Of a stretch of 64,000 nt of DNA, positions 8,645 to 62,222 are shown piece by piece. The stretch comes from a virus (lineage: Duplodnaviria; Caudoviricetes): IMG/VR virus record IMGVR_UViG_3300025016_000004. The stretch is one strand, 5' to 3'. Position numbers and translations under genes: made by a program. The notes below the pieces were generated by a model that was not told the origin of the DNA, made no database searches, and saw nothing but the letters and a program-made list of their open reading frames with translations. How positions within the stretch are numbered: the first letter of the stretch is position 1; each line of letters opens with the position of its first letter.

Positions 8645-8702
8645 AAAAAAACTTGTTTTATATTGAAACATTATGTATATTTGCACTATATATTAATAAC
8701 AA
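8645..8702 (+). promoter_or_regulatory. Bacteroidota sigma-type promoter P1, one of four near-identical copies
   Basis: TTG 8653-55 and TATATTTG 8676-83. Confidence 0.8.
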
Positions 8703-8731: not shown

Positions 8732-8839
8732 ATGCAAGCAATAAGTATTATACATATTATGAGTTCGATAAATTGGAGACGTAATTCTTCAGTAGTGTCA
8801 GGTATGTCTATACTTAATAGTGGAAATTGGTTTGGTTAA
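8732..8839 (+). CDS. Leader peptide 1: MQAISIIHIMSSINWRRNSSVVSGMSILNSGNWFG
   Basis: Codons 4-20 are all I/S/H/M/N/W/R; contains antiterminator TGTCAGG at 8796-8802. Confidence 0.85.
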   Translation: MQAISIIHIMSSINWRRNSSVVSGMSILNSGNWFG

Positions 8840-22931: not shown

Positions 22932-24291
22932 GTGAACTACCCACCCACGCCAGAGGCGATGGGTTGGGCTTCTGATTTCACAGACTTGTGCTTCTTTATA
23001 GAAGTCTTATTTGAGTCTCCATCAGTGTTATCGAGCATCCCACCCGATATTATTTTTAAACCTTCTTTGAGAATATTTCTACTTGCATTTACATCTCTGT
23101 CGTGTATTACACCGCACGAGTTACAAGTCCATTCTCTATCAGAAAGTTTTAAATTTTGATTTATCCAACCACAGTCTCCACAAGTCTTCGAGCTAGGATA
23201 GAAACGATTAACTTTTACAAGTTCTTTTCCATACCAATCACACTTATATTGAAGTAATGTAACAAAATTACCCCAACTTGCATCGGCAATATGTTTTGAT
23301 AATTTGTGGTTTTTAATCATACCTTTTACATTTAAGTCCTCAACTGATATTAAATCATATTGATTAACCAGTTTATGTGAAACCTTATGTAAAGTGTCTA
23401 ATCTACAACTTGCAATTTTCTCGTGAATTTTAGCAACTTTGAGTTTTTGTTTTTCAAACCCATTACTACCTTTTTGTTTACGAGAAAGATGTTGTTGTGC
23501 TTTTTTTAATTGTTTTGCATATTTTTTTGTATATCTATTATTTTTGAATTTAGCATTATCAGAAGTAATTACAAAATCCTTTAAACCTAAATCTATTCCA
23601 ACTTGTTTATTTGTTTTAGGTAATTCTTTATTCTGTTGTTCTGTAAATATTGAAACATAATATTTACCTGTTGGTGTTTTGGTAATTATCATTTTACCAA
23701 TCTTACCTTTGACTTCTCTGTGAAGTTTAACTTTAATACCTTCTTTAAATTTTGGTATATTAATTTTATCTCCTTCTATACTACCAAATTGAGGTATGGT
23801 AAAAGTATTTTTATGTTTACGAGATTTAAACTTTGGGAATTGTGCATTACCTCTAAAAAAGTTTAAAAAAGCTGTATCTAAAGAGCGTAGAGCGAATTGT
23901 AAAGTTTGACTATTAACTTCTTTCAACCACATAGTCTTTTCTTCTTTTTTAAGTTTTGTCAAAGTGGCAGCTTGTTTGTAATAATTGTCAGACTTTTTAT
24001 CCGCTTGGTATTGTTCTTTGCGTTCATTTAGAAAATGGTTATACACCCAACGAGAGTGACCAAAGTGTTGATTTAATAGCACTTCTTGCTCATTTGTTGG
24101 AAAAAGACGAAACTTATATGTCTTATTAATCATTTTCATACCTATTATACATCAAAATTTATGCCAAAATATAGTTTTATGTAAATTTGTCATACTTAGC
24201 CGTTCAATATATTTTAAGCCAAGGTTAATCATACCTTTGTCGCTTACATCCCATCCACGCTTTGCGATGAATGGGTTTTACGCTCCTTTTT
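22932..24291 (-). mobile_element. tnpB-only IS200/IS605 (IS1341-like) element
   Basis: Left end after TTTAT, right end GTAGTTCAC, subterminal hairpins. Confidence 0.88.
22937..24139 (-). CDS. tnpB: TnpB RNA-guided nuclease, apparently intact
   Basis: HTH, GIDLG, VEDL, zinc finger, DRDVNA. Confidence 0.95.
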   Translation of the reverse strand: MKMINKTYKFRLFPTNEQEVLLNQHFGHSRWVYNHFLNERKEQYQADKKSDNYYKQAATLTKLKKEEKTMWLKEVNSQTLQFALRSLDTAFLNFFRGNAQFPKFKSRKHKNTFTIPQFGSIEGDKINIPKFKEGIKVKLHREVKGKIGKMIITKTPTGKYYVSIFTEQQNKELPKTNKQVGIDLGLKDFVITSDNAKFKNNRYTKKYAKQLKKAQQHLSRKQKGSNGFEKQKLKVAKIHEKIASCRLDTLHKVSHKLVNQYDLISVEDLNVKGMIKNHKLSKHIADASWGNFVTLLQYKCDWYGKELVKVNRFYPSSKTCGDCGWINQNLKLSDREWTCNSCGVIHDRDVNASRNILKEGLKIISGGMLDNTDGDSNKTSIKKHKSVKSEAQPIASGVGG

Positions 24292-26451: not shown

Positions 26452-27414
26452 ATGAAAATAGTTAAGGTAAAACATATTAAAGAGATAGAATGTGACTCTA
26501 AGAGGTATGATATTCAAACCAAAGAAACCAATAATTTCTTTGCTAATGGGATATTGGTACATAACTCATTGATTCAAGTATATTGGGATTGGGTAGCTGA
26601 AAAATGGTGTGCTGGCACATCTGGTATGGCCGAAGGTGAAGGTGAAGTAAATGATAAACCAAATACTAAGTTTTCTGAATTATTTTGGGATACAATTACA
26701 TCACCAAAATATGGTTTTAATTGGGATAGAATGGTTAGAGGTAGAACATATATGTTTGAATTAATGACACCGTATAATATTGTTGTTTGCCCACATGGAG
26801 AATCAAAAGTATCATTATTAGGTGTTAGAGATTTAGATACGTTAAATGAGTATGGTTTTAATGATTTATATACAATATCTACTGATATTGGGTTACCATT
26901 AGTTAAATCTTTTAACATTAATGCATCAAATGCTGGTCATTTAATGGCGACATTTGAAGGTATGTCATTCTCTGAAGAAGGTTATGTTGTAGTTGATGCT
27001 AATTTCAATAGAATCAAGTTAAAAAACCCAGCTTATGTTGCAATGCATTATACTAAAAGTAAATTAGGTAATCACCATATATTAGAGGTGTTAAAAACTA
27101 ATGAAGTTGATGAATGGATTGCAACGTTCCCAGAAAGGTCTGAAGAAATAATTCAACTTAAAGAAGGGTTAGTAAAATTGACTGATGATTTGGAAAATGC
27201 TTGGGTAGAATTAATACCATATAAACCTAAAAACATAACTAAACAAGAACAAAAGAGGTTTGCGATGAAAGTATTTGAAGTATCTAATAAACACTTCAAA
27301 AATACTCGTCACACTGGATTGTTTTTTGGGTTAAAAGATGGTAAAATTAACACGATTAGAGAATATATAATCAATATGAATAATAAAGATTTATATGAAA
27401 TATTAACAAAATAA
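26452..27414 (+). CDS. Split intein C-part plus RNA ligase (Rnl1-like) C-extein
   Basis: YDIQT..NNFFANGILVHN | SLIQVY; EEGYVV; RIKLKNP. Confidence 0.88.
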   Translation: MKIVKVKHIKEIECDSKRYDIQTKETNNFFANGILVHNSLIQVYWDWVAEKWCAGTSGMAEGEGEVNDKPNTKFSELFWDTITSPKYGFNWDRMVRGRTYMFELMTPYNIVVCPHGESKVSLLGVRDLDTLNEYGFNDLYTISTDIGLPLVKSFNINASNAGHLMATFEGMSFSEEGYVVVDANFNRIKLKNPAYVAMHYTKSKLGNHHILEVLKTNEVDEWIATFPERSEEIIQLKEGLVKLTDDLENAWVELIPYKPKNITKQEQKRFAMKVFEVSNKHFKNTRHTGLFFGLKDGKINTIREYIINMNNKDLYEILTK

Positions 27415-31234: not shown

Positions 31235-32062
31235 ATGGTAATTACAACATGGTGTGAATTAGTAAATGGTAGGTGGGGTTACTCAAAACACCTATCTAAG
31301 ATAAAATTTCCGATTAATATGGTTAAATGTGATGATTGTAATCACATATATAATGAAAGGTTTGATAAAACAAATAAAAGGTTTGAAAAAAATGAAAAAG
31401 ATTTGTGTAAAAATTGTGTTAAAGAGAAAGAAGCTAAAAGACTTTCAGAGGTAGGTAAAAAAGCTTTAAGTAAAATATCAAAAAAAGATAGAACCAAAAA
31501 TGCTAAATTGGGTGGTGAAGCATCATCTTTGAATCATAACAATTCTGGTAGATTTTCAACGGAAAGGTGGGAGTCTATGAGTAAAAAAGAGCAAAATAAA
31601 CAAGTAACAAGAGCAAATAAGGCATTACACGATAAATTAAATTCAGATGAAGAATTTAGATTAAAACATTATTTAAAGATTTTTAAAAATTCTAAAATTG
31701 GTTTTACATCTAAAGGTCATAATGAATTACATGATTTTTTAAAAGAATATGGATTTAAACAGCACCATGTAATAGATAAACTTGAGGTTGATGAATGTAA
31801 TGTTAATAGAAAAATCGTTGTGGAATATAATGGGGATTTATATCATTGTAATCCTAGAAAATATGATGGTGATTACTACAACACAGCAATTAAAATGATT
31901 TGCTCTGATAAATGGGAAAAGGATAGAAAAAGAACTTGGTTATTAAAAAGAAAGGGATATAAAGTTTTTGTTGTTTGGGAAGATGATTGGTATAAAAATA
32001 GGGAAAAAATTAAAAATAGATTAAATAAATTTATTAATAATGAAATTAAAAAAGATAAATAA
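31235..32062 (+). CDS. Free-standing Vsr-like/DUF559-type endonuclease between the intein halves
   Basis: VDECN..VEYNGDLYHCNP...D..R..L...GY.V..VWE. Confidence 0.78.
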   Translation: MVITTWCELVNGRWGYSKHLSKIKFPINMVKCDDCNHIYNERFDKTNKRFEKNEKDLCKNCVKEKEAKRLSEVGKKALSKISKKDRTKNAKLGGEASSLNHNNSGRFSTERWESMSKKEQNKQVTRANKALHDKLNSDEEFRLKHYLKIFKNSKIGFTSKGHNELHDFLKEYGFKQHHVIDKLEVDECNVNRKIVVEYNGDLYHCNPRKYDGDYYNTAIKMICSDKWEKDRKRTWLLKRKGYKVFVVWEDDWYKNREKIKNRLNKFINNEIKKDK

Positions 32063-32999
32063 AATAAAAGAAAGAAGGTCATTTGACCTTACGATACAAG
32101 ACACAAATTGTTTTTTTGTAAATGACATTTTGGTGCATAATTCAAATGCGGGTATTGGACATACTGAAAATGATGGTATTTGGGCACAATCTAGAAGTAA
32201 TATTATAACTCCTGAAAATGATAATATGGGGTTTGCAAGGTATGTTGAAGATAATAAACAAGCATTCCTTGAATTGGTTGAACATGTTAGATATGTAAAC
32301 CATAAGATTAACCCAAACGATACTGTTATTGTATTCGGTGAATGGGCTGGTAAAGGCATCCAAAAAGGAGTTGCAATATCTCAAATAGAAAAGTCATTTT
32401 TCATATTTGACGTAAAAGTTGTACCTGAAGATAGTACTAAACCATATCATTTAGCTTCTCACTATTTAAGAGATATTGACCATAGAATTTATAATGTTGA
32501 AGATTTCTTATCTTATGAAATCGAAATTGATTTTAATAGACCTGATTTGGCTCAAAATGAATTAAGTGAGATTACCATTGCAGTTGAAGAATTATGCCCC
32601 GTAGGTAAAGCTTTTGGTATTGAAGGAATTGGTGAGGGTGTGGTTTGGTGTGCAACGGTTGATGGTCATGATTACCGTTTCAAAGTGAAGGGTGAACGAC
32701 ATAGCGCATCTAAAGTTAAGACTTTAGCTAAAGTTGATACTGAGAAAATAAATTCTATCCATGAATTTGTTGGTTACGCTGTAACTCAAAATAGATTTGA
32801 ACAAGGTATGGGCATTATTTTCCCTAACGGAGATATTGACATTAAAAAAATGGGTGATATCATTAGATGGGTTGTGAATGATATTATGGCCGAAGAAAAG
32901 GATGTTTTAGAAGATAATAACCTCCAATCAAAAGATGTCAACAAATACATTTCAACAAAGGTTCGAGAACTCTTTTTAGAGGAATATAATAAACTTTGA
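32040..32999 (+). CDS. Split intein C-part plus RNA ligase (Rnl2-like) C-extein
   Basis: FDLTI..FFVNDILVHN | SNAG; FGEWAG; GEGVVW; FKVK. Confidence 0.88.
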   Translation: MKLKKINKIKERRSFDLTIQDTNCFFVNDILVHNSNAGIGHTENDGIWAQSRSNIITPENDNMGFARYVEDNKQAFLELVEHVRYVNHKINPNDTVIVFGEWAGKGIQKGVAISQIEKSFFIFDVKVVPEDSTKPYHLASHYLRDIDHRIYNVEDFLSYEIEIDFNRPDLAQNELSEITIAVEELCPVGKAFGIEGIGEGVVWCATVDGHDYRFKVKGERHSASKVKTLAKVDTEKINSIHEFVGYAVTQNRFEQGMGIIFPNGDIDIKKMGDIIRWVVNDIMAEEKDVLEDNNLQSKDVNKYISTKVRELFLEEYNKL

Positions 33000-36824: not shown

Positions 36825-37145
36825 AATATATTTGTTTTTTATATATATAAATATGCCGAAAATTTGGAAAATCAGACAAAATGTAGTATAATTGCGTTAA
36901 GAAACAATTAAATTACAACAAATTAAAAAAAAAGTGGGGATTTCATTTGGTAATCCCAGATTTTATTTTTATGGTTGTACCAACACCTCATGATAAAATA
37001 TTAGAAAATAGTAGAAAAGATTGTAGTTGTAGTAATGTTAAGACCGAAAGGTTTATGTATATAGATGCAATTAAATATTAAAAATTATTTAGTTATTTAA
37101 AATAATTTACATACCTTTGAAGAGTTAATATAAAATTTTTTGAAA

Positions 37146-38429
37146 ATGATTACTAAAGAAAATGGTTTAAGGTATGCAAAATTAGTCCATGTATCAGTTG
37201 ATAATGGGTTAACATCTCAAAGTAATAAGGTGTATATAATGGAAGAACAACCTGATGGTAGAATCAAATGTGATTATGGTCGAGTTGGTAAAGATTTAGT
37301 GACTGTCTACAAGCGGTCACACGAATGGAATAAAGTTCTTCAAAGTAAAACAAACCCTAGAAAGGGTTATCAAGATGTTACAGACCTTATTGCTGAAACC
37401 ACAACAACCTCTTCAAATAGTACATCATCAAAAACAGCTGATATTAAAGATAATCAAGTAAAACAATTATTTGATGATTTAATGGCTTATGCAAATAAAT
37501 CAATCCAAAGAAACTATAAGGTTACACAAGATGCTGTAACTCAAGCACAAATTGATGCCGCTCAAGAAGTTTTAACAAAAGCTTCAGGATTGGCTAAAGT
37601 TGGTGTTAATGTTAAAGAAATCAACGACTTATTAATAAGACTGTACACCATCATTCCAAGAAAAATGAAAGATGTTCGTGATTATTTGATTGATGCTGCG
37701 GATGATAAAGATGATTTAGATAAGATAAAAAACTTCTTAGCTAACGAACAAGATACATTAGATACAATGGCTGGTCAGGTAAAACTTATTAGTCAACAAA
37801 AGGGTTCAACCATTGATGATGATTTAGATGGTGATGGGGAAATTACCTTATTAGAACAAATGGGGTTAGAGGTGTCTGTTGAAACTGACCCTAAACAATT
37901 AGAATTGATAGATAGATTGGTTGGACCAACTAAAGATAGACTTAAAAAGGTTTATAAATGTGTTAATAAGAAAACACAAGCTGTATTCGATAAACATTAC
38001 GGTAATGCTAGATTTAAAGACAGAAAATTATTCTGGCATGGGTCTAGAAATGAAAATATTTTTAATATAATCCAATCAGGATTATTAATTAGACCTTCAG
38101 GTGCAGTTCATACGGGGTCAATGTTTGGTGATGGAATATATTATGCTAATAAGGCTCAAAAATCATTAGGTTATACTTCAGTAAGAGGTTCTTATTGGGT
38201 AAATGGTAGTTCTAATAAGGGTTATTTATTGTTATATGATGTTTATCATGGAAAACAAAAAGATATTTATAAACATGATTCTAGTTGTTACTCATTATCT
38301 CAAAAAGTAATGGATGATGAAGGTTATGATTCAGTTTATGCACATGGTGGAGCGGATTTAAGAAATGATGAATTCATTATTTATAACCCAAAACAGTGCA
38401 CTATTAAATATATAATTGAGATAGTCTAA
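37146..38429 (+). CDS. PARP-like enzyme: WGR, regulatory and catalytic domains
   Basis: YGRVG; FWHGSR..N; GSMFGDGIYYA..AQKS; NDEFIIY (H-Y-E triad). Confidence 0.9.
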   Translation: MITKENGLRYAKLVHVSVDNGLTSQSNKVYIMEEQPDGRIKCDYGRVGKDLVTVYKRSHEWNKVLQSKTNPRKGYQDVTDLIAETTTTSSNSTSSKTADIKDNQVKQLFDDLMAYANKSIQRNYKVTQDAVTQAQIDAAQEVLTKASGLAKVGVNVKEINDLLIRLYTIIPRKMKDVRDYLIDAADDKDDLDKIKNFLANEQDTLDTMAGQVKLISQQKGSTIDDDLDGDGEITLLEQMGLEVSVETDPKQLELIDRLVGPTKDRLKKVYKCVNKKTQAVFDKHYGNARFKDRKLFWHGSRNENIFNIIQSGLLIRPSGAVHTGSMFGDGIYYANKAQKSLGYTSVRGSYWVNGSSNKGYLLLYDVYHGKQKDIYKHDSSCYSLSQKVMDDEGYDSVYAHGGADLRNDEFIIYNPKQCTIKYIIEIV

Positions 38430-43626: not shown

Positions 43627-43710
43627 ATGAAAATGAAAACTTTAGTAACTTTATTATCTTTATGTCTGTTGGTCGTGTGTACTGACACATCGAGTTATGT
43701 AATTACTTAA
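43627..43710 (+). CDS. Leader peptide 2: MKMKTLVTLLSLCLLVVCTDTSSYVIT
   Basis: 11 of codons 6-18 are L/V/C; antiterminator ACATCGAGTT at 43687-96. Confidence 0.85.
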   Translation: MKMKTLVTLLSLCLLVVCTDTSSYVIT

Positions 43711-46070: not shown

Positions 46071-46520
46071 ATGAAAAAAACAGCCCTACTTGTATTATTA
46101 ATGTTGACATTAACCTTTAGTTTTGGACAAACCAATGGGTCAGTAATTATGAACGATTCACTTATTGTTCAATATCTTGAGGAATTCGTTGACGAAGCCG
46201 CCCAAAATGGCTACGATATTCAAGAACAATTATTAAGTAAAGTTAGTTATATACTAATAGCAAAAGAGGATAAGCAAATTGAAGGTTTATCTGAAATTGA
46301 TTTGAATAACAAATTAATCTTATTGGACCCCAAAGTTCGTTTAGATAGATTAATATTAAAAGCAAGGCTATATAGAGAGTTATGTCACGCTTTAGGTGTA
46401 CCATATGACACTGGTAGTGTTATGATGGATAGGGTTAAAGAAAAAGGTTTTTCTTATGTGGCATTTGATGATTCTGAAATACTTAGCATTGAATTAGGTA
46501 AAGTTCTGAAATTAATTTAA
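46071..46520 (+). CDS. Exported protein
   Basis: Signal peptide. Confidence 0.65.
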   Translation: MKKTALLVLLMLTLTFSFGQTNGSVIMNDSLIVQYLEEFVDEAAQNGYDIQEQLLSKVSYILIAKEDKQIEGLSEIDLNNKLILLDPKVRLDRLILKARLYRELCHALGVPYDTGSVMMDRVKEKGFSYVAFDDSEILSIELGKVLKLI

Positions 46521-46580
46521 AAAATCAAGGTTTTAATTAATTGAAAATCAAATAATTTAAAAATAATTTAAAAATAATTG

Positions 46581-46638
46581 CAAAAAAATTTGTTTTATAT
46601 TGAAACATTTACTATATTTGCACTATATATTAATAACG
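46581..46638 (+). promoter_or_regulatory. Promoter P3
   Basis: TTTG 46589-92; TATATTTG 46613-20. Confidence 0.8.
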
Positions 46639-46668
46639 GTATTAATAAAGTACCACAAAATAAAAGTA

Positions 46669-46764
46669 ATGAGAAACTTAATTAACATATTTGAAAACGA
46701 ATTTTTCGCAGCCGAGGCAGATTTTAGCTTGGGTAGGATGAGAATTGTCAAAAATGAAAGTTAA
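46669..46764 (+). CDS. Leader peptide 3: MRNLINIFENEFFAAEADFSLGRMRIVKNES
   Basis: 11 of codons 8-19 are F/E/A/D; antiterminator GGATGAGA at 46736-43. Confidence 0.85.
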   Translation: MRNLINIFENEFFAAEADFSLGRMRIVKNES

Positions 46765-46796
46765 GTTATTTAAAAAATAATAAAAACAATAAGACA

Positions 46797-46829
46797 AAAT
46801 CTCATCCAAATCGGATGAGATTTTTTTTT
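46797..46829 (+). terminator. Attenuator terminator 3
   Basis: AAAATCTCATCC-AAATC-GGATGAGATTTTTTTTT. Confidence 0.9.
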
Positions 46830-46838
46830 GTTATAAAC

Positions 46839-46911
46839 GGATGTGAGGTGTTGTAGGTAACATGCTTGACTGTCACTCAAGCGATTGCGGGTTCGACCCC
46901 CGTGACATCCG
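46839..46911 (+). tRNA. trnD: tRNA-Asp(GTC)
   Basis: CTTGA-CTGTCAC-TCAAG; G73. Confidence 0.9.
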
Positions 46912-46995
46912 CAAAATTAAATTTGATTATCATGGGATAAATAAAGAAGTGATTAAGAATTTCCTACTTAATCGAGATGAAACTGGAAGAGAGAT

Positions 46996-47254
46996 AATGT
47001 TCTATCCAGAAACAGGAAAAAAGTATTATATTGAATGGATAGGTGATGGTTATAGTAAATGGGGAGATTTCGACCCAGTAACTAAAAAATTCACTGGTAA
47101 TTATGGAACTAAATATAGAGGTTCAGTAACACCTAAAGAATCTGTAATCACTAAAGAGAATGGATTCAATGATATTCATGAAGGTAAAGGTTCAGCGTAT
47201 GAACACGTAAATTGGTTGCATAACCAATGGAAAAAAGAAAATGGTTATGGGTAA
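46996..47254 (+). CDS. Hypothetical phage protein
   Basis: 3' part of track ORF 46862; start placed after the tRNA at about MFYPETGKKY. Confidence 0.55.
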
Positions 47255-47423
47255 GATTGATAAAAAGAGAAATAGATTAATTGAGAGAATCAAAATGTTA
47301 GAAGATGAATTAACTTTATCTTTAACTAAAAAAACCTCTAATACTGTGGAAATTAATGTACCACTTCAACAAAGAAAGATTCAGGAGTTGAAAGAACAAT
47401 TAAGAGGGTTAATGTAACCCTCA

Positions 47424-47514
47424 AACAGTACCAGCGCATAACGGTTGGTGTACCTGACTGTCACTCAGGTTTGGTTTATCCATGTAGCGGGTTCGACTCC
47501 CGTTGTAGTTGCCA
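47424..47514 (+). tRNA. trnD: tRNA-Asp(GTC) with a long variable arm and encoded CCA
   Basis: ACCTGA-CTGTCAC-TCAGGT. Confidence 0.7.
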
Positions 47515-47575
47515 AAAATAAAACAAAGAATCATTGTTTTAACCCTTGTCGGGGAGGTTTTTAAATGGTTCATAA

Positions 47576-47646
47576 GGGGACTTCGAATAATGGTAGTTCG
47601 TATGGTTGAAGCCCATAAGGTAAGAGTTCGACTCTCTTAGTTCCCA
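47576..47646 (+). tRNA. trnF: tRNA-Phe(GAA)
   Basis: TATGG-TTGAAGC-CCATA. Confidence 0.85.
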
Positions 47647-47653
47647 CAAATTT

Positions 47654-47727
47654 GCTGCCGTAGTATAGCGGTCAAGTACACAAGGCTTTCAACCTTGCAG
47701 ACGCCAGTTCGAATCTGGTCGGCAGTA
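47654..47727 (+). tRNA. trnE: tRNA-Glu(TTC)
   Basis: CAAGG-CTTTCAA-CCTTG. Confidence 0.88.
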
Positions 47728-47738
47728 CAAATAATAAT

Positions 47739-47752
47739 GGTCGGGTAGAGCA
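47739..47752 (+). pseudogene. 5' fragment of a split tRNA-Phe
   Basis: GGTCGGG pairs with TCCGACC at 48446-52. Confidence 0.6.
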
Positions 47753-47830
47753 TAATAAGTTATTTGACATTTTGGTAGAATTTATTTTTTAAAAAATGTG
47801 TCTTTTAATAAAAACTTCATATTTATTAAT

Positions 47831-48322
47831 ATGAGTAGAGACGAAAAGATTATAGAAATGTATAACGCTGGTGAAACAGCCACAGTTATATCAAAAGAAT
47901 TAAAAATAGGTAGGAAAACAGTTTATAGAACTTTAGATAAGTTTAATATAACATTACATAAAAATAAACCTAATAATTGTCTAGTGTGTGGTAAGACATC
48001 TAAAAAGAAGTTATGTGGTACGTGTAACACTAATCTAAGGAGATATAGAGTCAAGAAATTAGCTGTTGAATATCTAGGTGGTGAATGTAAAAGATGTGGT
48101 TGGGAGGGTGATGTATCAGGATTTGATTTTCATCATAAAGACCCAAATCAAAAAGATTTTAATCCAAGTGGTTTAAACTTGGCTAATAAATCTTGGGAAA
48201 GGGGTAAAGAAGAATTGGATAAGTGTGAATTATTATGTGCACTGTGTCACAGATTAGAACATAGCACTTATGGGATTTTAGAAAAAATAAATTTAGAGTA
48301 TAAAGGTAAAACCTTTCTATAA
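47831..48322 (+). CDS. HNH homing endonuclease with an N-terminal HTH
   Basis: GFDFHH...LDKCELLCALCHRLEH. Confidence 0.88.
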   Translation: MSRDEKIIEMYNAGETATVISKELKIGRKTVYRTLDKFNITLHKNKPNNCLVCGKTSKKKLCGTCNTNLRRYRVKKLAVEYLGGECKRCGWEGDVSGFDFHHKDPNQKDFNPSGLNLANKSWERGKEELDKCELLCALCHRLEHSTYGILEKINLEYKGKTFL

Positions 48323-48395
48323 GGCTTGGTAACTCAGTTGGTAGAGTAGTGGACTGAAAATCCATATGTCACTGGTTCGATTCCAGTTCAAGCCA
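48323..48395 (+). tRNA. trnF: tRNA-Phe(GAA)
   Basis: Canonical; abuts the HNH stop codon. Confidence 0.92.
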
Positions 48396-48411
48396 CTATA
48401 CCAAAAAGTTA

Positions 48412-48453
48412 TTGAAGAACCATGTGTCGTTGGTTCGATTCCAACTCCGACCA
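48412..48453 (+). pseudogene. 3' half of a split tRNA-Phe(GAA)
   Basis: TT-GAA-GA-ACCAT...T-arm...TCCGACCA. Confidence 0.75.
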
Positions 48454-48545
48454 CAAATTGTGATAGTTAATCCTCTTATCTATGAAGTCTTAGGTAATGA
48501 AACTAGTCTCGGTAGACAATGTGCACATTGATTCTACCCAAATAT

Positions 48546-48617
48546 GGCCCATTCGTCTAATGGTTAGGACGACAGGTTTTCGACCTGTAAACGAGAGTTC
48601 GACTCTCTCATGGGCTA
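48546..48617 (+). tRNA. trnE: tRNA-Glu(TTC)
   Basis: ACAGG-TTTTCGA-CCTGT. Confidence 0.9.
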
Positions 48618-48649
48618 CAAGTTTGCAAACTAAGGTTATTAATTTCCTT

Positions 48650-48715
48650 GGGGGTATCGTCTAACTGGTTAGGATAGCTATTGGTAAGATATGGGTTCGA
48701 GTCCCATTGTTTCCA
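48650..48715 (+). pseudogene. Glu-type tRNA with a deleted anticodon arm
   Basis: D and T arms intact. Confidence 0.6.
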
Positions 48716-48726
48716 AAAAATTAATA

Positions 48727-48801
48727 TGGTTTATCGTCTAAATGGCAAAAGATACTGTGCGTGTCAGTACAGAGATGGAGGTTCGAGCCCTCCGAAAACC
48801 G
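48727..48801 (+). pseudogene. Asp-type tRNA with an 8-nt anticodon loop
   Basis: CTGTG-CGTGTCAG-TACAG; G73. Confidence 0.6.
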
Positions 48802-48808
48802 CAATATG

Positions 48809-48844
48809 GGGGGCACATGTACCAAGGCAAGGCGTTGGACATTT
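48809..48844 (+). pseudogene. 5' half of a split tRNA-Ala
   Basis: GGGGGCA pairs with TGTCTCC at 49622-28; GGACA pairs with TGTCC. Confidence 0.75.
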
Positions 48845-48891
48845 ACCTAAACTTATGTGGTCGTTTCGATTATTTTGTGATATTTATTAAT

Positions 48892-49533
48892 ATGAAAGAA
48901 TGTCCAAAGTGTGGTAATAACCACCATAAAAAGGGTAAGTTTTGTTCTAGGTCTTGTGCTAATAGTAGAACTTGGTCCAAAGAAGATAAAAGTAAAAAAT
49001 CTGAAATCGCTAAAAAATCTGAAAAAGTTTTATTGGCCAATCGTGACCCTGAAAGAAGAAAGAATCTCTCAATATCAGCAAAAGCCCAAGCAAAAGTTGG
49101 TAACATTAATTGGAGTAAATTACATACTAAAGATGTTATTAACAAGGCCTTAAAAACTAAAAAGCTTAAAAGGGAACTATGGTTAGATTCATTTGATAGG
49201 AGTGATAAAATTGAATACCGTAAAGCTTGTAAATTTAAATTTAGTCTTAATTCATACCCAGATAAATTTGATTTTTGGTTGATTGAAGAGTATGGCTGGT
49301 ATAAAGCTAAAAATATGGGTGACAATCCAAATGGGATAAGTAGAGACCATATGTACTCAATTAGTGAAGGATTTAAAAATGGTGTTGACCCGTATTATAT
49401 TAGTCACCCAGCCAATTGTAAATTAATGAGGCATGGTGAAAATAATAAAAAAGATGGTAAAAGTAGTATTAATCTAGAAGATTTAATAAAAAAAGTTAAT
49501 AAATGGGATAATAAATATGGGCCGTTAGCATAA
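48892..49533 (+). CDS. HNH homing endonuclease
   Basis: CPKC..FCSRSCA; SRDHMYS...HPANC...N; true start at 48892. Confidence 0.82.
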   Translation: MKECPKCGNNHHKKGKFCSRSCANSRTWSKEDKSKKSEIAKKSEKVLLANRDPERRKNLSISAKAQAKVGNINWSKLHTKDVINKALKTKKLKRELWLDSFDRSDKIEYRKACKFKFSLNSYPDKFDFWLIEEYGWYKAKNMGDNPNGISRDHMYSISEGFKNGVDPYYISHPANCKLMRHGENNKKDGKSSINLEDLIKKVNKWDNKYGPLA

Positions 49534-49591
49534 ATGGCAAATGCTCTTCATTTGCAATGAGGAAGATTGGGTTCGAATCCCAGCGTGTCCA
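49519..49591 (+). tRNA. trnA: tRNA-Ala(TGC), overlapping the HNH stop; acceptor stem imperfect
   Basis: CTTCA-TTTGCAA-TGAGG; G3:U70. Confidence 0.75.
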
Positions 49592-49629
49592 CAATGTCCG
49601 AGAGAAGGATTCGATTTCCTTTGTCTCCA
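49592..49629 (+). pseudogene. 3' half of a split tRNA-Ala
   Basis: CAA-TGTCC...AAGGA-TTCGATT-TCCTT-TGTCTCCA. Confidence 0.75.
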
Positions 49630-49765
49630 CAAACATTCTTTACTTATGAATATAATTTATTATATTATATTTATGAGTAAGGATTATCGAAAATTATACG
49701 AAACTACCCACGGTGAACTACCCACACACTAAAAAGATGTGTGGGCTTCCTGCACAACGCACAGC

Positions 49766-50884
49766 CTAATGGCTCACGTTAGCGTACAAAGGGTTGTCCC
49801 TAACCCCGAAATTCTTTATGTTATATGCAGCGTTTACATCTCTATCAATTGAATTACCGCACTTATCACAATCATAAGTTCTATCTAAAAGTTTTAAATC
49901 TTTCTTGTGGTTTCCACAGTTAGAACATACTTTACTGCTTGGTTCAAACCTTCCAATTACAACAAGATTTTTACCTTGCCATTCAGTCTTATATTCAAGC
50001 ATTGTTCTTAATTGTCGCCAACCCATATCAGATATTGCTTTAGCTAAATTATGGTTCTTAACCATATTACTAACAGACAAATCTTCCAATACAATTGTAT
50101 TATAAGATTTAACTAATTCAGTAGATATTTTGTGCAAGTAATCAGTCCTTTGGTTACGAATTTTTTCTTGCAGTAATGCTACTTTTAATTTTTGTTTTTC
50201 TCTATTTATTGAGTCTTTCTGTTTTCTTGCAAGGCTTCTTTGTTCAACTCTTAATCTTCTTTGTTGTGATTTAAAGAAGTTTTTATTTTCATATACTACA
50301 CCATCAGAAGTAATAGCTAAATCTTTAATTCCAAAATCAATACCAACAGATGTTTCAGTTTTAATTGATTTTTTCTTTGGTTTTTCGGTTTGAGTATCAA
50401 CCAATATTGAAACAAAATATTTACCAGTTACTGTTTTAGTTAATGTAACTCTTTTAGGTAAACCTTTAAATTCTCTGTGGTAATCAATAGCAACTTCTTT
50501 TAATTTAGGTAGCTTTAGTATTCCCTCTTTAAACGATATTTCAAATCCTTGTGGAAACGTAATTGACTGTTTGGAATACTTATTTTTAAATTTAGGAAAT
50601 TGACCTTTACCCTTAAAAAAGTTTTGATATGCTGTATCTAAATTGATTATGCTATGTTGTAATACTTGACTTGGACATTCTTTAATGTAGTCAAATTCTT
50701 TTCTCAATTCTGGAAGTTGTTTTATTAAATCATATTTAGATATTGATTTTTTATTTGAGGCATACGCAACAGTCTTGGTTTCCAACCCCAAATTATAGAC
50801 AAGTCTATTTACACCAAAATACCTTTGTAGTTGGTCTTTTTGGTCATCTGTTGGAAATATTCTGTATTTGTATCCTTTAAGCAT
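49766..50884 (-). CDS. tnpB: TnpB, apparently intact
   Basis: GIDFG, LEDL, zinc finger, DRDVNAA. Confidence 0.95.
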   Translation of the reverse strand: MLKGYKYRIFPTDDQKDQLQRYFGVNRLVYNLGLETKTVAYASNKKSISKYDLIKQLPELRKEFDYIKECPSQVLQHSIINLDTAYQNFFKGKGQFPKFKNKYSKQSITFPQGFEISFKEGILKLPKLKEVAIDYHREFKGLPKRVTLTKTVTGKYFVSILVDTQTEKPKKKSIKTETSVGIDFGIKDLAITSDGVVYENKNFFKSQQRRLRVEQRSLARKQKDSINREKQKLKVALLQEKIRNQRTDYLHKISTELVKSYNTIVLEDLSVSNMVKNHNLAKAISDMGWRQLRTMLEYKTEWQGKNLVVIGRFEPSSKVCSNCGNHKKDLKLLDRTYDCDKCGNSIDRDVNAAYNIKNFGVRDNPLYANVSH

Positions 50885-57394: not shown

Positions 57395-57862
57395 AATAAT
57401 AATATTATGACAACTATGACAATTCTAAAAAACTTCCATATGGGAACCATAAAATGTTTTCCATGGAAAATAAATTTCTTGCACATGTAGATACCAAACG
57501 TATGAATTGGTATCTAGATAGGGATTTAGCTATCATGTTAAACGAATATAGATACCAATCATTTTTAAAAGGGGCTATCCAAATCACCTGGTTCACCAGC
57601 CGAAGAGAGAAACTTCAAGCCCTTTTTATTTTTTAAATGCTGAAAATCAAGTAGTTAAAAAAAGTTTAAAATTTTTTGTTATTTTACTTGTTTTTTAAAT
57701 ATATATTATGTACATTTGCAGAGTAAAAATAGGAAAGTTATAATGAGGCGAAATCATTATAAAACAACTTTAAGTGAGGCTCTTAAAACTTTTTTAAAAA
57801 AAATCGCAAAAAACTTGTTTAATTAAAAAATAAGTTGTATATTTGCACAAGAATTAAAATAC

Positions 57863-57878
57863 GTTCATTAAAATATTG
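57863..57878 (+). promoter_or_regulatory. boxA-like motif downstream of tandem promoters
   Basis: GTTCATTAAAATATTG; TATATTTG at ~57838. Confidence 0.45.
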
Positions 57879-57886
57879 AAAATAAT

Positions 57887-58706
57887 GGGGTGCTTATGCT
57901 CCTTCCTTCGGGAAAAGATAAACCTAGTGATAGGTATAAAGTGATGTCCAAACAAGGCATTGCGTTGAGGGCTTTCGGGTCAACAATCTGTGTAAGCATA
58001 TTAACTACGAACAAGGGTCAATGGCTGAATGGCTGAGATTAACGAGTTCACTCCCTAGCTTCGGGGAGTTGAGATAGAAATATCAATAGGCGGTTAGTAG
58101 ATTTCGGTTGAAACGTGTAAAAAGCGGATAGGCTGATTTCATCATGATTTGTTATGGAATGTTTAATAATGATGCTTCATTATAATCTTGGGAAACCAAG
58201 CGTTATATTAAGTTAAGTTAATTTGTAAATCTAAGTAATGAAGAAATGATGTGGTGGTAAAACACTGCAACGGGGTGTCGTAAACTAAACTGGTCAAAAG
58301 CCAGCACGTTTGTCAACTGCTAGACACATCCTGTAAGAGAGAGCATCGCTAATCAATTAGGTGGGGCGATAGCCCAACCACTTTTATGTTAAAAAAGCAA
58401 AGATAAGTAAAAGTTCTAGCGGTCACGGATACAAAATTAAGTTATCCCACTGAAATATGTGGGCAGTTATTAACCTCACAAGGGTAACGCTGAAACGGAG
58501 ACTAGGTATCGTTAGTAGGAGGGTCGCACCTTCTCATCCTCGCAAGGGAGCTAGGTAGTGAAATTGGTTTATATCAATCTGTGGTAAAAGAGTTTGCAGT
58601 CACTCCAAGACTGTCTTAATGATGCCTACCAAGTGGAAACATGAGGTGTGTGAAATAGGGAAACCGAAAGCAAAAGGTATTACAAGGGCCCAACACTCAA
58701 GCCTTT
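57887..58706 (+). ncRNA. Giant structured ncRNA, GOLLD-like
   Basis: ~820 nt with no ORF, GC-richer than its flanks, many GNRA/UUCG hairpins, adjacent to tRNA-like genes. Confidence 0.62.
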
Positions 58707-58708
58707 AA

Positions 58709-58780
58709 CGGAGATATCGTCTAATTTGAAGACACTTCCTATTGCTGGAAGGTAATGTAGTATCAAATCTACCATTCCGA
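58709..58780 (+). pseudogene. Degenerate tRNA
   Basis: CTTCC/GGAAG stem; aberrant loop and T-loop. Confidence 0.5.
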
Positions 58781-58844
58781 CTATAAAATGAATATGTGAA
58801 TACATGACGATATGAGTTGCCTACCACACATATTCATTTTGAAA

Positions 58845-58934
58845 GGCGCAGTAGCTCAATTGATAGAGCGTGTTGAAACATCCGATAAACGGTTGAAGTA
58901 GGCAAGGTTGGTGGTTTGAGTCCATCTTGTACCA
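58845..58934 (+). ncRNA. tRNA-like RNA with an expanded anticodon loop
   Basis: Canonical acceptor, D and T arms; CCG-ATAAA-CGG insert. Confidence 0.55.
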
Positions 58935-59511: not shown

Positions 59512-59610
59512 ATGAGAAATTATACAACATATACGAAACAGTATCAACCGAAGGGCGGGAAGTCCCAAGGTCAACTGAGTATACGTTGTAGTGACATAAC
59601 AGAATTCTAA
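59512..59610 (+). CDS. Leader peptide 4: MRNYTTYTKQYQPKGGKSQGQLSIRCSDITEF
   Basis: Codons 4-17 are all Y/T/K/Q/P/G; antiterminator TCAACTGAG at 59571-79. Confidence 0.85.
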   Translation: MRNYTTYTKQYQPKGGKSQGQLSIRCSDITEF

Positions 59611-61346: not shown

Positions 61347-62222
61347 ATGAGAGAATTAGTGGTAACACCATCGATAACAGATAGAAGTTCACCTTCATTA
61401 CAAATGTACTTCAATGACATTCAATCAATTAAGATTTTAACACCTGAAGAAGAGTATGAAATTGCGGTAAAAGCGTTTGATGGTGATGAAAAATCTAAAG
61501 AATTATTAGTAAAACATAACCTAAGATTTGTAATAAGTGTTGCAAAACAATATCAAATATATGGGATTAAATTTGAAGATTTAATCAATGAGGGTAATAT
61601 AGGGTTGCTTAAAGCGTCAGAAAAGTTTGACCCATCAAGAGGTTTTAAATTTATATCATATGCTGTATGGTGGATTAGACAAACAATAATAGCACACATA
61701 CAAGCAAACAGTAAAATTGTTAGACCACCACTTGGTAAATATATTAAATCATTTAAAATGAAAAAAGAATATACCTTGTTGGAGCAAAAGTTAGAAAGAA
61801 CTCCAGCTTACAATGAATTGGTAGACCATTTAGGTAATGAGTTTAGTGATTCTGAAATAGAGTTTTTTATTGATAATTTAAGTAATAAGGTACAATCATT
61901 AGACGCACCTTTAGGAGAAGATGATGATTCTATAACGTTATTAGATTTGTTAAAAGATTCAAATGATTTCGATTCAAATGACTTAGTTAAGTTAGGTGAT
62001 TCTGACATTAGAACTGAAGTATTACTTAGTAGGTTAAATGATGAAGAGAAAACCATATTAATATTATTATATGGCTTAGATGGTAGAGAACCAGTAAGTA
62101 TCAAAGAAGTATCAAATATGTTAGAACTTAGCAAAGCAAGAATTGCTTTGATTAGAGATAAGTCTTTACGTAAATTAAAATTCCAATTGCTTCATAAGGG
62201 TAATTGGTTGAAAGAAATATGA
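61347..62222 (+). CDS. RNA polymerase sigma-70 factor (RpoD-like, no region 1.1)
   Basis: HNLRFVISVAKQY; DLINEGNIGL.KA.EKFDP.RGFKFISYAVWWIRQ; SLDAP; region 4. Confidence 0.93.
   Translation: MRELVVTPSITDRSSPSLQMYFNDIQSIKILTPEEEYEIAVKAFDGDEKSKELLVKHNLRFVISVAKQYQIYGIKFEDLINEGNIGLLKASEKFDPSRGFKFISYAVWWIRQTIIAHIQANSKIVRPPLGKYIKSFKMKKEYTLLEQKLERTPAYNELVDHLGNEFSDSEIEFFIDNLSNKVQSLDAPLGEDDDSITLLDLLKDSNDFDSNDLVKLGDSDIRTEVLLSRLNDEEKTILILLYGLDGREPVSIKEVSNMLELSKARIALIRDKSLRKLKFQLLHKGNWLKEI

Follow-up and report, generated by a model that had tools for sequence, protein, structure and literature searches.

A promoter, a leader ORF and a terminator precede a phage tRNA operon

The DNA analysed here is a stretch of 64,000 nucleotides (the window) from IMG/VR virus record IMGVR_UViG_3300025016_000004 (Caudoviricetes), whose source is a giant uncultured phage of Flavobacteria-like hosts. 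At positions 46,581 to 46,829, a promoter is followed by a short open reading frame (ORF) and a terminator hairpin, directly upstream of an operon of transfer RNA (tRNA) genes for Asp, Phe, Glu and Ala (Table 1). The original prediction had read this region as an attenuator sensing the same four amino acids. We consider it likely, judging from the sequence and its relatives, that ribosome-mediated attenuation of the trp/ilv type gates this operon and thereby makes tRNA supply follow demand.

The leader ORF lies at the predicted position and encodes MRNLINIFENEFFAAEADFSLGRMRIVKNES. Its codons 8-19, TTT GAA AAC GAA TTT TTC GCA GCC GAG GCA GAT TTT, form the putative sensor run, in which Phe, Glu, Ala and Asp account for 11 of the 12 residues, as had been claimed. 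Because these four amino acids make up only 0.221 of the residues in the long ORFs of the window, such a composition has a probability of 6e-7 for one 12-residue window and still of ~1e-5 after correction for the 20 windows of the leader peptide.

tRNA genes behind the terminator were called with ARAGORN and Rfam together. The U tract of the terminator ends 9 nt before the first gene, tRNA-Asp, which leaves no space for a further promoter, and inside the operon neither a full promoter-like motif nor a terminator-like site was found on the + strand. The operon is therefore plausibly one transcription unit that relies on read-through at 46829. It is ended by a TnpB gene on the opposite strand. 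The statement that only Asp, Phe, Glu and Ala tRNAs follow the leader is essentially right, as no other identity could be assigned in the block; exceptions to its wording are a Glu-like remnant and a tRNA-like stretch called by neither program.

Table 1 Features of the leader region and the downstream operon (window positions)
Feature	Position	Strand	Details
Promoter	46589-46620	+	-33 TTTG 46589-46592; -7 box TATATTTG 46613-46620; A-rich tract 5′ of it
Small 5′ hairpin	46638-46654	+	Minimum free energy (MFE) fold; between transcription start and start codon
Leader ORF	46669-46764	+	31 codons plus stop; A-rich start context without Shine-Dalgarno sequence
Putative sensor codons 8-19	46690-46725	+	FENEFFAAEADF
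Region 1	46698-46718	+	5′ strand of 1:2 hairpin, within sensor codons; MFE pairs
Region 2	46727-46749	+	Antiterminator strands GGAUGAGA (46736-46743) and UUGUC (46745-46749); pairs with region 1 or 3
Region 3	46793-46807	+	GACAA (46793-46797) and terminator 5′ arm
Region 4	46813-46829	+	Terminator 3′ arm 46813-46824 and nine U 46821-46829
Putatively controlled operon	46839-49591	+	tRNA-Asp, Asp-like, Phe, Glu, HNH ORF, Phe, Glu, two tRNA-like remnants, 263-aa ORF, tRNA-Ala(TGC)
tRNA-Asp(GTC)	46839-46911	+	First gene
Asp-like tRNA gene	47427-47511	+	Long extra arm; 28 bits, just under Rfam cut-off
tRNA-Phe(GAA)	47576 (start)	+
tRNA-Glu(TTC)	47654 (start)	+
HTH-HNH endonuclease ORF	47798-48322	+	Ends exactly where the next tRNA-Phe begins
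tRNA-Phe(GAA)	48323 (start)	+
tRNA-Glu(TTC)	48546 (start)	+
Glu-like tRNA remnant	48650-48715		No anticodon arm
tRNA-like stretch	48727-48803		Called by neither program
263-aa ORF	48742-49533		3′ end overlaps 5′ part of tRNA-Ala(TGC)
tRNA-Ala(TGC)	49519-49591	+	37.7 bits; three acceptor-stem mismatches

The leader can form mutually exclusive RNA structures

The terminator consists of a 12-bp stem (46796-46807 with 46813-46824) that runs into the U tract, and an AU-rich spacer separates it from the leader ORF. Its 3′ arm is repeated within the ORF: GGATGAGA occurs at 46736-46743 and again at 46813-46820, and TCTCATCC lies in the 5′ arm at 46800-46807. Pairing between a leader segment and a terminator arm had been predicted and was confirmed, and it is longer than claimed. 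Besides GGAUGAGA with UCUCAUCC (46800-46807), UUGUC (TTGTC in the DNA) at 46745-46749 pairs with GACAA. This antiterminator duplex has a predicted energy of -17.3 kcal/mol, compared with a mean of -7.5 (s.d. 1.9) for dinucleotide shuffles of the ORF, 1 of 2000 of which reached the observed value. The fold of the whole leader has a z-score of -6.6. In the MFE fold without a ribosome, 46698-46718, which spans F/F/A/A/E/A codons of the sensor run, pairs with 46727-46747, including GGAUGAGA, and the terminator is also formed; as modelled, this ribosome-free state is the classical 1:2 plus 3:4 arrangement.

Stalled ribosomes were modelled as a footprint reaching 15 nt upstream and 12 nt downstream of the first A-site base. 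With the stall at codon 19 (the final Phe of the run) or earlier, this footprint left the antiterminator strand uncovered; from codon 20 onwards it covered the strand. Before region 3 is made, GGAUGAGA had a mean unpaired probability of 0.31 on ribosome-free RNA. Stalls at codons 2-8 gave 0.32-0.40 and stalls at codons 9-19 gave 0.44-0.96, with a peak at codons 16-18 and a dip to 0.28 at codon 12; most stalls at codons 9-18 fell within 0.55-0.96. With the ribosome at the stop codon the value was 0.35. According to this coverage and accessibility, the sensor run fills the range of positions where a stall melts 1:2 yet leaves region 2 free. Under the footprint model, the spacing would thus let a ribosome stalled on the regulatory codons free region 2.

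Four cassettes in the window carry leaders that match their own tRNA blocks

The promoter recurs near-unchanged in the window with -7 boxes at 8676, 43532 and 59461. Behind each of them come a leader ORF (8732-8839, 43627-43710 and 59512-59610, respectively), a repeat of the 3′ arm of the cassette's terminator, that terminator itself and a block of tRNA genes. With the cassette at 46,581 as A3, the run of A1 is ISIIHIMSSINWRRNSS (tRNAs His, Trp, Ser, Ile, Leu, Met, Asn, Ser, Arg), that of A2 LVTLLSLCLLVVC (Cys, Val, Leu) and that of A4 YTTYTKQYQPKGGK (Pro, Lys, Thr, Tyr, Gln, Glu, Gly). The best 12-residue windows had 12, 10, 11 and 12 residues matching their own tRNA block for A1 to A4, versus at most 8 for other blocks, and the codon-set match has a P of 1e-5 to 3e-7 per cassette in all four. 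The four core sets are disjoint and together cover all 20 amino acids, while the leaders share their architecture and no common sequence past the first residues.

In a 4 × 4 comparison of leader-to-arm duplexes, the diagonal was strongest for A1, A2 and A3. Shuffling gave strong support for the antiterminator in A2 and A3 and weak support in A1 and A4, and the footprint model placed the 3′ stall boundary of A1 and A2 where it lies in A3. The paralogous leaders also match their tRNA blocks at the level of codons: leader 1 uses AGA and CGT, with Arg(TCT) and Arg(ACG) tRNAs downstream, and its AGT and TCN codons are matched by Ser(GCT) and Ser(TGA) tRNAs. A more tentative idea, which we rate as possible rather than probable, is that the four attenuators form a complete four-channel system of demand sensing for all 20 amino acids, which would detect depletion of any tRNA and transcribe only the block that is needed.

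Orthologues keep the leader, the codon set and the tRNA set

Promoter-pattern scans of metagenomes and IMG/VR yielded four orthologues, on contigs of other giant phages. Two are Tara Oceans contigs: L090, with tRNAs Asp, Asp, Glu, Glu, Phe, Phe, Glu and Ala(TGC) before the contig ends, and L081 (89.8 kb), with Asp, Asp, Glu, Phe, Phe and Glu. The other two lie in genomes with terminal repeats, L095 in one of 360 kb (G004; Asp, Asp, Glu, Phe, Ala, Glu, Glu) and L094 in one of 339 kb (G003; Ala, Phe, Asp, Glu). The leader frame is intact in all four, at 29-31 codons, and the corresponding runs are FENEFFAAEADF in L090, FENDFFAAEADF in L081, FENDFIVAEADF in L095 and FDFAFEAIAED in L094. Comparison with phage homologues had been proposed as a check; in this comparison all four shared the architecture, the F/E/D/A run and the set of Asp, Phe, Glu and Ala tRNAs, with stems that co-vary. 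In L094, codon order and gene order both differ, and the set of four identities is unchanged.

Covariation was seen in both competing stems. In L094, the ORF segment (GUUGAGU), the 5′ arm (ACUCAAC) and the 3′ arm (GUUGAGU) are three copies altered together. Among the four closer sequences, both partners have changed in the terminator pairs 46799-46821 and 46800-46820, and the antiterminator shows compensatory changes at 46743-46800 (A-U to U-A, L081) and 46749-46793 (C-G to U-A, L095). The 1:2 pairs are mostly kept with little variation, and covariation support for them is weak. The footprint model gave the same stall boundary in L090, L081 and L094. At the nucleotide level, the leader ORF shares 96-97% identity with those of L090 and L081, compared with 63-65% for the 5′ untranslated region and 65-88% for the tRNAs, a pattern that fits constraint on the ORF both as codons and as RNA.

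Other routes to relatives gave less. Among cultured or deposited phages, DNA searches matched just tRNA and endonuclease fragments; no relatives were found in IMG/VR by way of neighbouring proteins, the exact promoter pattern had no match in IMG/VR, and a back-translated pattern of the sensor run had none in IMG/VR or the genome contigs.

The cassette uses a host-type tRNA promoter

By its sequence, the promoter is of the Bacteroidota sigma-A form, with 20 nt from TTTG to TATATTTG. In Flavobacterium the sigma-A -7 box, TAnnTTTG, occupies -12 to -5 (PMC9723704), which puts the likely transcription start at ~46625. About 55 bp of the promoter region are near-identical at the four sites in the window. 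The promoter pattern also had 70 matches in Bacteroidota genomes, mostly of Flavobacterium, Lutibacter and Polaribacter, and in 46 of the 70 a tRNA gene starts 8-50 nt downstream, indicating that the phage uses a copy of the host tRNA promoter. Whereas the tRNA follows directly after this promoter in host Flavobacteriia, the phage cassette has a leader with an ORF and a terminator; from this arrangement, the leader of ~200 nt appears to be a phage addition, inserted between a host-type tRNA promoter and the first tRNA. Of the cultured relatives, Tenacibaculum phage PTm1 is without tRNA genes, and Tenacibaculum phage pT24, the nearest one that has any, carries four of them after a plain promoter and no leader. 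The element was thus seen in no close relative that can be cultured.

The host clade appears capable of the mechanism, as signs of leader-peptide attenuation upstream of amino-acid operons have been reported in Flavobacterium psychrophilum (PMC9723704). DNA matches of the stretch came from aquifer and groundwater metagenomes; among RNA runs, three shared just a small part of its words (0.04-0.12). As a separate observation, the Bacteroidota genomes (L006-L075) contain a strongly conserved extended promoter, AAAAA-N-TTGTTTT-N15-17-TATATTTGCAC, before tRNA-Gly, Lys, Leu, Val and Ser genes; it was seen across Flavobacterium, Lutibacter and Polaribacter, and the tRNA begins just 8-30 nt beyond it.

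A model of demand-driven tRNA supply and its alternatives

The locus combines a promoter, a short ORF, sensor codons, a 1:2 hairpin over these codons, a 2:3 pairing that excludes 3:4 and a fitting stall geometry. All sequence-level features that define leader-peptide attenuators are thus present, and the attenuator interpretation gains support from comparative and structural evidence. In the proposed mechanism, host RNA polymerase would start at the strong promoter that copies those of host tRNAs, and a ribosome would begin the 31-codon ORF. With charged Phe-, Glu-, Ala- and Asp-tRNAs plentiful, it would pass codons 8-19, region 1 would pair again with region 2 behind it, the 3:4 terminator would form and transcription would end 9 nt before tRNA-Asp. 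If any of the four charged tRNAs ran short, the ribosome would stall on the sensor codons, covering region 1 and not region 2; free GGAUGAGA and UUGUC could then pair with the emerging 5′ arm of the terminator, which would be blocked, so that the polymerase would enter the Asp/Phe/Glu/Ala tRNA genes. In this way, the speed of decoding would control the supply of the decoding tRNAs by negative feedback, with OR logic over the four. It is thus probable that the phage produces these tRNAs only while Phe, Glu, Ala and Asp codons are being read slowly.

Several observations weigh against this model. Within the cassette, the sensor run holds one Asn codon, and Asn belongs to another block; the acceptor stem of tRNA-Ala is poor. 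Among the relatives, the L090 antiterminator has two mismatches, and the G004 run contains Ile and Val although no such tRNAs were called in its operon. The type-4 leader of G003 (MNTNFTYQQKQQTPKGYRPYGKLG...) keeps Thr, Gln, Lys and Gly codons, yet just Tyr and Pro tRNA genes follow it, and the His/Arg/Asn block of G003 is without an attenuator (L104, G003:C1:50000-52000, reverse strand, and L102). Because of these mismatches in G003 and G004, the matching of leaders and tRNAs is strong and not a strict rule; leaders may outlive the loss of tRNA genes. As to folding, the full-length MFE structure retains the terminator under every ribosome mask, and a transcript cut before the 3′ arm slightly favours 2:3 even without a ribosome (-32.1 versus -30.1 kcal/mol). 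A purely thermodynamic switch was rejected in favour of a kinetic one, since equilibrium folding with ribosome masks never removed the terminator. As the terminator persists in the MFE fold and 2:3 beats 1:2, the choice between structures must be kinetic, through trapping of 1:2 as in trp. We infer this kinetic switching and the use to which the switch is put, as well as coupling of transcription and translation in the host, the last being a further point on the side of doubt.

Some of these points would suit a sensor of general translation capacity, which would detect a ribosome following the polymerase and for which codon composition would be secondary. The modelled geometry responds to any slow decoding in codons 9-19, the Asn codon included, and such a sensor would also accord with the G003 leader codons that lack matching tRNA genes and with Ile and Val in the G004 run. 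However, a general sensor needs no match between leader and tRNAs, whereas the four cassettes of one genome carry disjoint codon sets that match their own blocks with the probabilities given above, and the F/E/D/A set stays with the Asp/Phe/Glu/Ala tRNAs though both orders differ; we therefore regard this explanation as unlikely. Rather less likely still is a constitutive or leaky terminator or insulator with an incidental ORF, in which case the tRNAs would stem from unregulated basal read-through. To place a strong terminator behind a strong promoter, 9 nt short of the first gene, makes little sense without a switch, the ORF is conserved above the tRNAs with a composition far from chance, and its copy of the terminator 3′ arm co-varies with that arm across five phages, even though the terminator is the most stable structure in every modelled condition, as a constitutive element would have it.

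Other explanations do without the ribosome or without regulation. A switch operated by a phage or host protein, or by uncharged tRNA in a T-box-like manner, would leave the ORF untranslated. Translation of the leader ORF is indeed presumed and the ORF has no Shine-Dalgarno sequence, which Bacteroidota generally lack (PMC9723704). Yet five diverged phages keep the frame open at 29-31 codons. Most changes in the run exchange one member of the set for another (E to D), whereas the non-coding flanks have diverged without restraint. A run of twelve codons specifying four amino acids suits a ribosome and not a single specifier codon. Apart from tRNA, a cmscan of 46500-49800 (E up to 1) gave one chance match, to Tymo_tRNA-like, and no Rfam leader family or T-box. 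Taken together, these findings make a switch without a ribosome improbable. The least credible alternative, to which we give very little weight, is a gene for a micro-protein whose end the terminator merely marks. The peptide is well conserved among close relatives, as such a gene would predict, but L094 has a peptide of different order and sequence with the same composition, the four paralogous leaders share architecture and not sequence beyond their first residues, and the tRNAs would be left without a promoter of their own. Synonymous sites of the leader are conserved too, which points to constraint at the RNA level and counts further against a micro-protein.

Relation to known attenuators

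Ribosome-mediated attenuation as proposed here resembles that of the multivalent attenuators of enterobacteria, where the ilvGMEDA leader senses Leu, Val and Ile and the thr leader Thr and Ile. They share with the phage cassette a short ORF, a run of codons for several amino acids, 1:2, 2:3 and 3:4 pairing and an intrinsic terminator; in both, a stalled ribosome would select the antiterminator, and shortage of any one sensed amino acid would open the operon. Whereas their targets are biosynthetic enzymes, the cassette targets tRNA genes, so that sensed molecule and product are of the same kind. Unlike them, it is phage-borne and in a Bacteroidota setting, and it has no sequence similarity or Rfam match to known leader families. 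With E. coli trpL it has in common four regions, regulatory codons in region 1, a 2:3 pairing weaker than 3:4 and a kinetic choice. Masking of region 2 in E. coli trp is the work of a ribosome that has reached the stop codon. The stop of the cassette (46762) lies 19 nt past the GGAUGAGA core, and re-formation of 1:2 behind the ribosome must therefore replace masking of this kind.

The pheM leader of pheST likewise uses leader-peptide attenuation to tune the machinery of Phe decoding and not amino-acid synthesis, although it is a chromosomal element that responds to one amino acid and controls a synthetase. T-box riboswitches also couple the charging state of specific tRNAs to read-through by competition between terminator and antiterminator. 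They differ in binding the tRNA directly, with one specifier codon and no ribosome, whereas the cassette has a conserved ORF and no T-box match. A search of full-text literature found no description of tRNA-operon attenuation or of leader-peptide control of phage tRNA genes, and attenuator-like leaders at E. coli pheU/pheV were not substantiated there.

A possible counterpart in a cultured phage was noticed in Caulobacter phage phiCbK (L110, NC_019405, 49540-49769), where the 45-aa gp335 and an annotated rho-independent terminator stand directly before tRNAs Pro, Pro, Lys, Lys, Leu (three) and Ser (two). About half of gp335 is S/L/P/K, with Ala and Thr abundant too, and other groups of tRNA genes have two further annotated terminators in front of them. 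The sequence best complementary to the terminator arm is found ~30 nt past the gp335 stop codon, a geometry that differs from that of the window cassette. The phiCbK element may represent analogous control, the picture being suggestive and not clean.

Implications for phage tRNA genes

The purpose and regulation of phage tRNA genes have been debated for decades. Current ideas on their role are codon compensation, substitution for host tRNAs that have been degraded and evasion of defences that cleave tRNAs (PMC10264068, PMC11464382). In the literature found, there was no regulation of phage tRNA genes through the decoding process itself. New here are the tRNA genes as target, the phage as carrier and a set covering all 20 amino acids. 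We know of no earlier case of a tRNA operon under leader-peptide attenuation, and this would be the first.

If the model holds, tRNA supply would be set directly by the slowness with which its codons are read, and the question of when a phage needs its tRNAs becomes testable with a 200-nt element. Causes of depletion could be the codon demand of the phage itself, a shut-down of tRNA synthesis in the host or host defences based on anticodon nucleases; the four-channel system, should it exist, would then be a translation-based sensor of tRNA-targeting immunity. The cassette also suggests that classical attenuation operates during infection in Bacteroidota, which lack Shine-Dalgarno sequences, and were the phiCbK element analogous, large phages of unrelated hosts would widely share the principle. 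For synthetic biology in Bacteroidota, the four non-overlapping sets in one genome offer possible tools, as compact and orthogonal sensors of tRNA availability.

Further features of the leader, the tRNA blocks and the window

The small 5′ hairpin of the leader is found at the same place, with quite different sequence, in L090, L081 and L095 and is absent from L094, hence in four of five phages including that of the window; a role in transcript stability is a guess.

Within the Asp/Phe/Glu/Ala block, the overlap between the 263-aa ORF and tRNA-Ala(TGC) looks as if an inserted gene had taken over the original 5′ end of the tRNA, and Asp, Phe and Glu tRNAs occur twice each around the inserted ORFs. 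At the corresponding end of the L081 tRNA block lies a GIY-YIG-like ORF. In the window, genes for TnpB / IS605 OrfB (Cas12f-like) lie at 49766-50884 and 22937-24139, both on the - strand, and one of them directly ends tRNA block 3.

Around tRNA block 4, a sigma-70 family gene (61347-62222; regions 1.2, 2, 3 and 4) lies within the block downstream of attenuator 4 and, given this position, would be co-regulated with its tRNAs. The tRNA-type promoter occurs a fifth time (-7 box at 57838), where it drives a stretch of ~950 nt that is free of ORFs and apparently structured (57838-58934 region). Within it, 58270-58704 matches GOLLD RNA (RF02032) at 59.5 bits (E 1.7e-14), under the gathering score of 150. 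This GOLLD-like stretch is followed by a tRNA at 58845-58934 and then by attenuator 4.

Elsewhere in the window, of the ORFs in the group 26452-27414, 32040-32999 and 37140-38429, two begin with intein C-terminal splicing motifs, one of these being an RNA ligase, and the same group includes a 429-aa ORF with a PARP catalytic domain.

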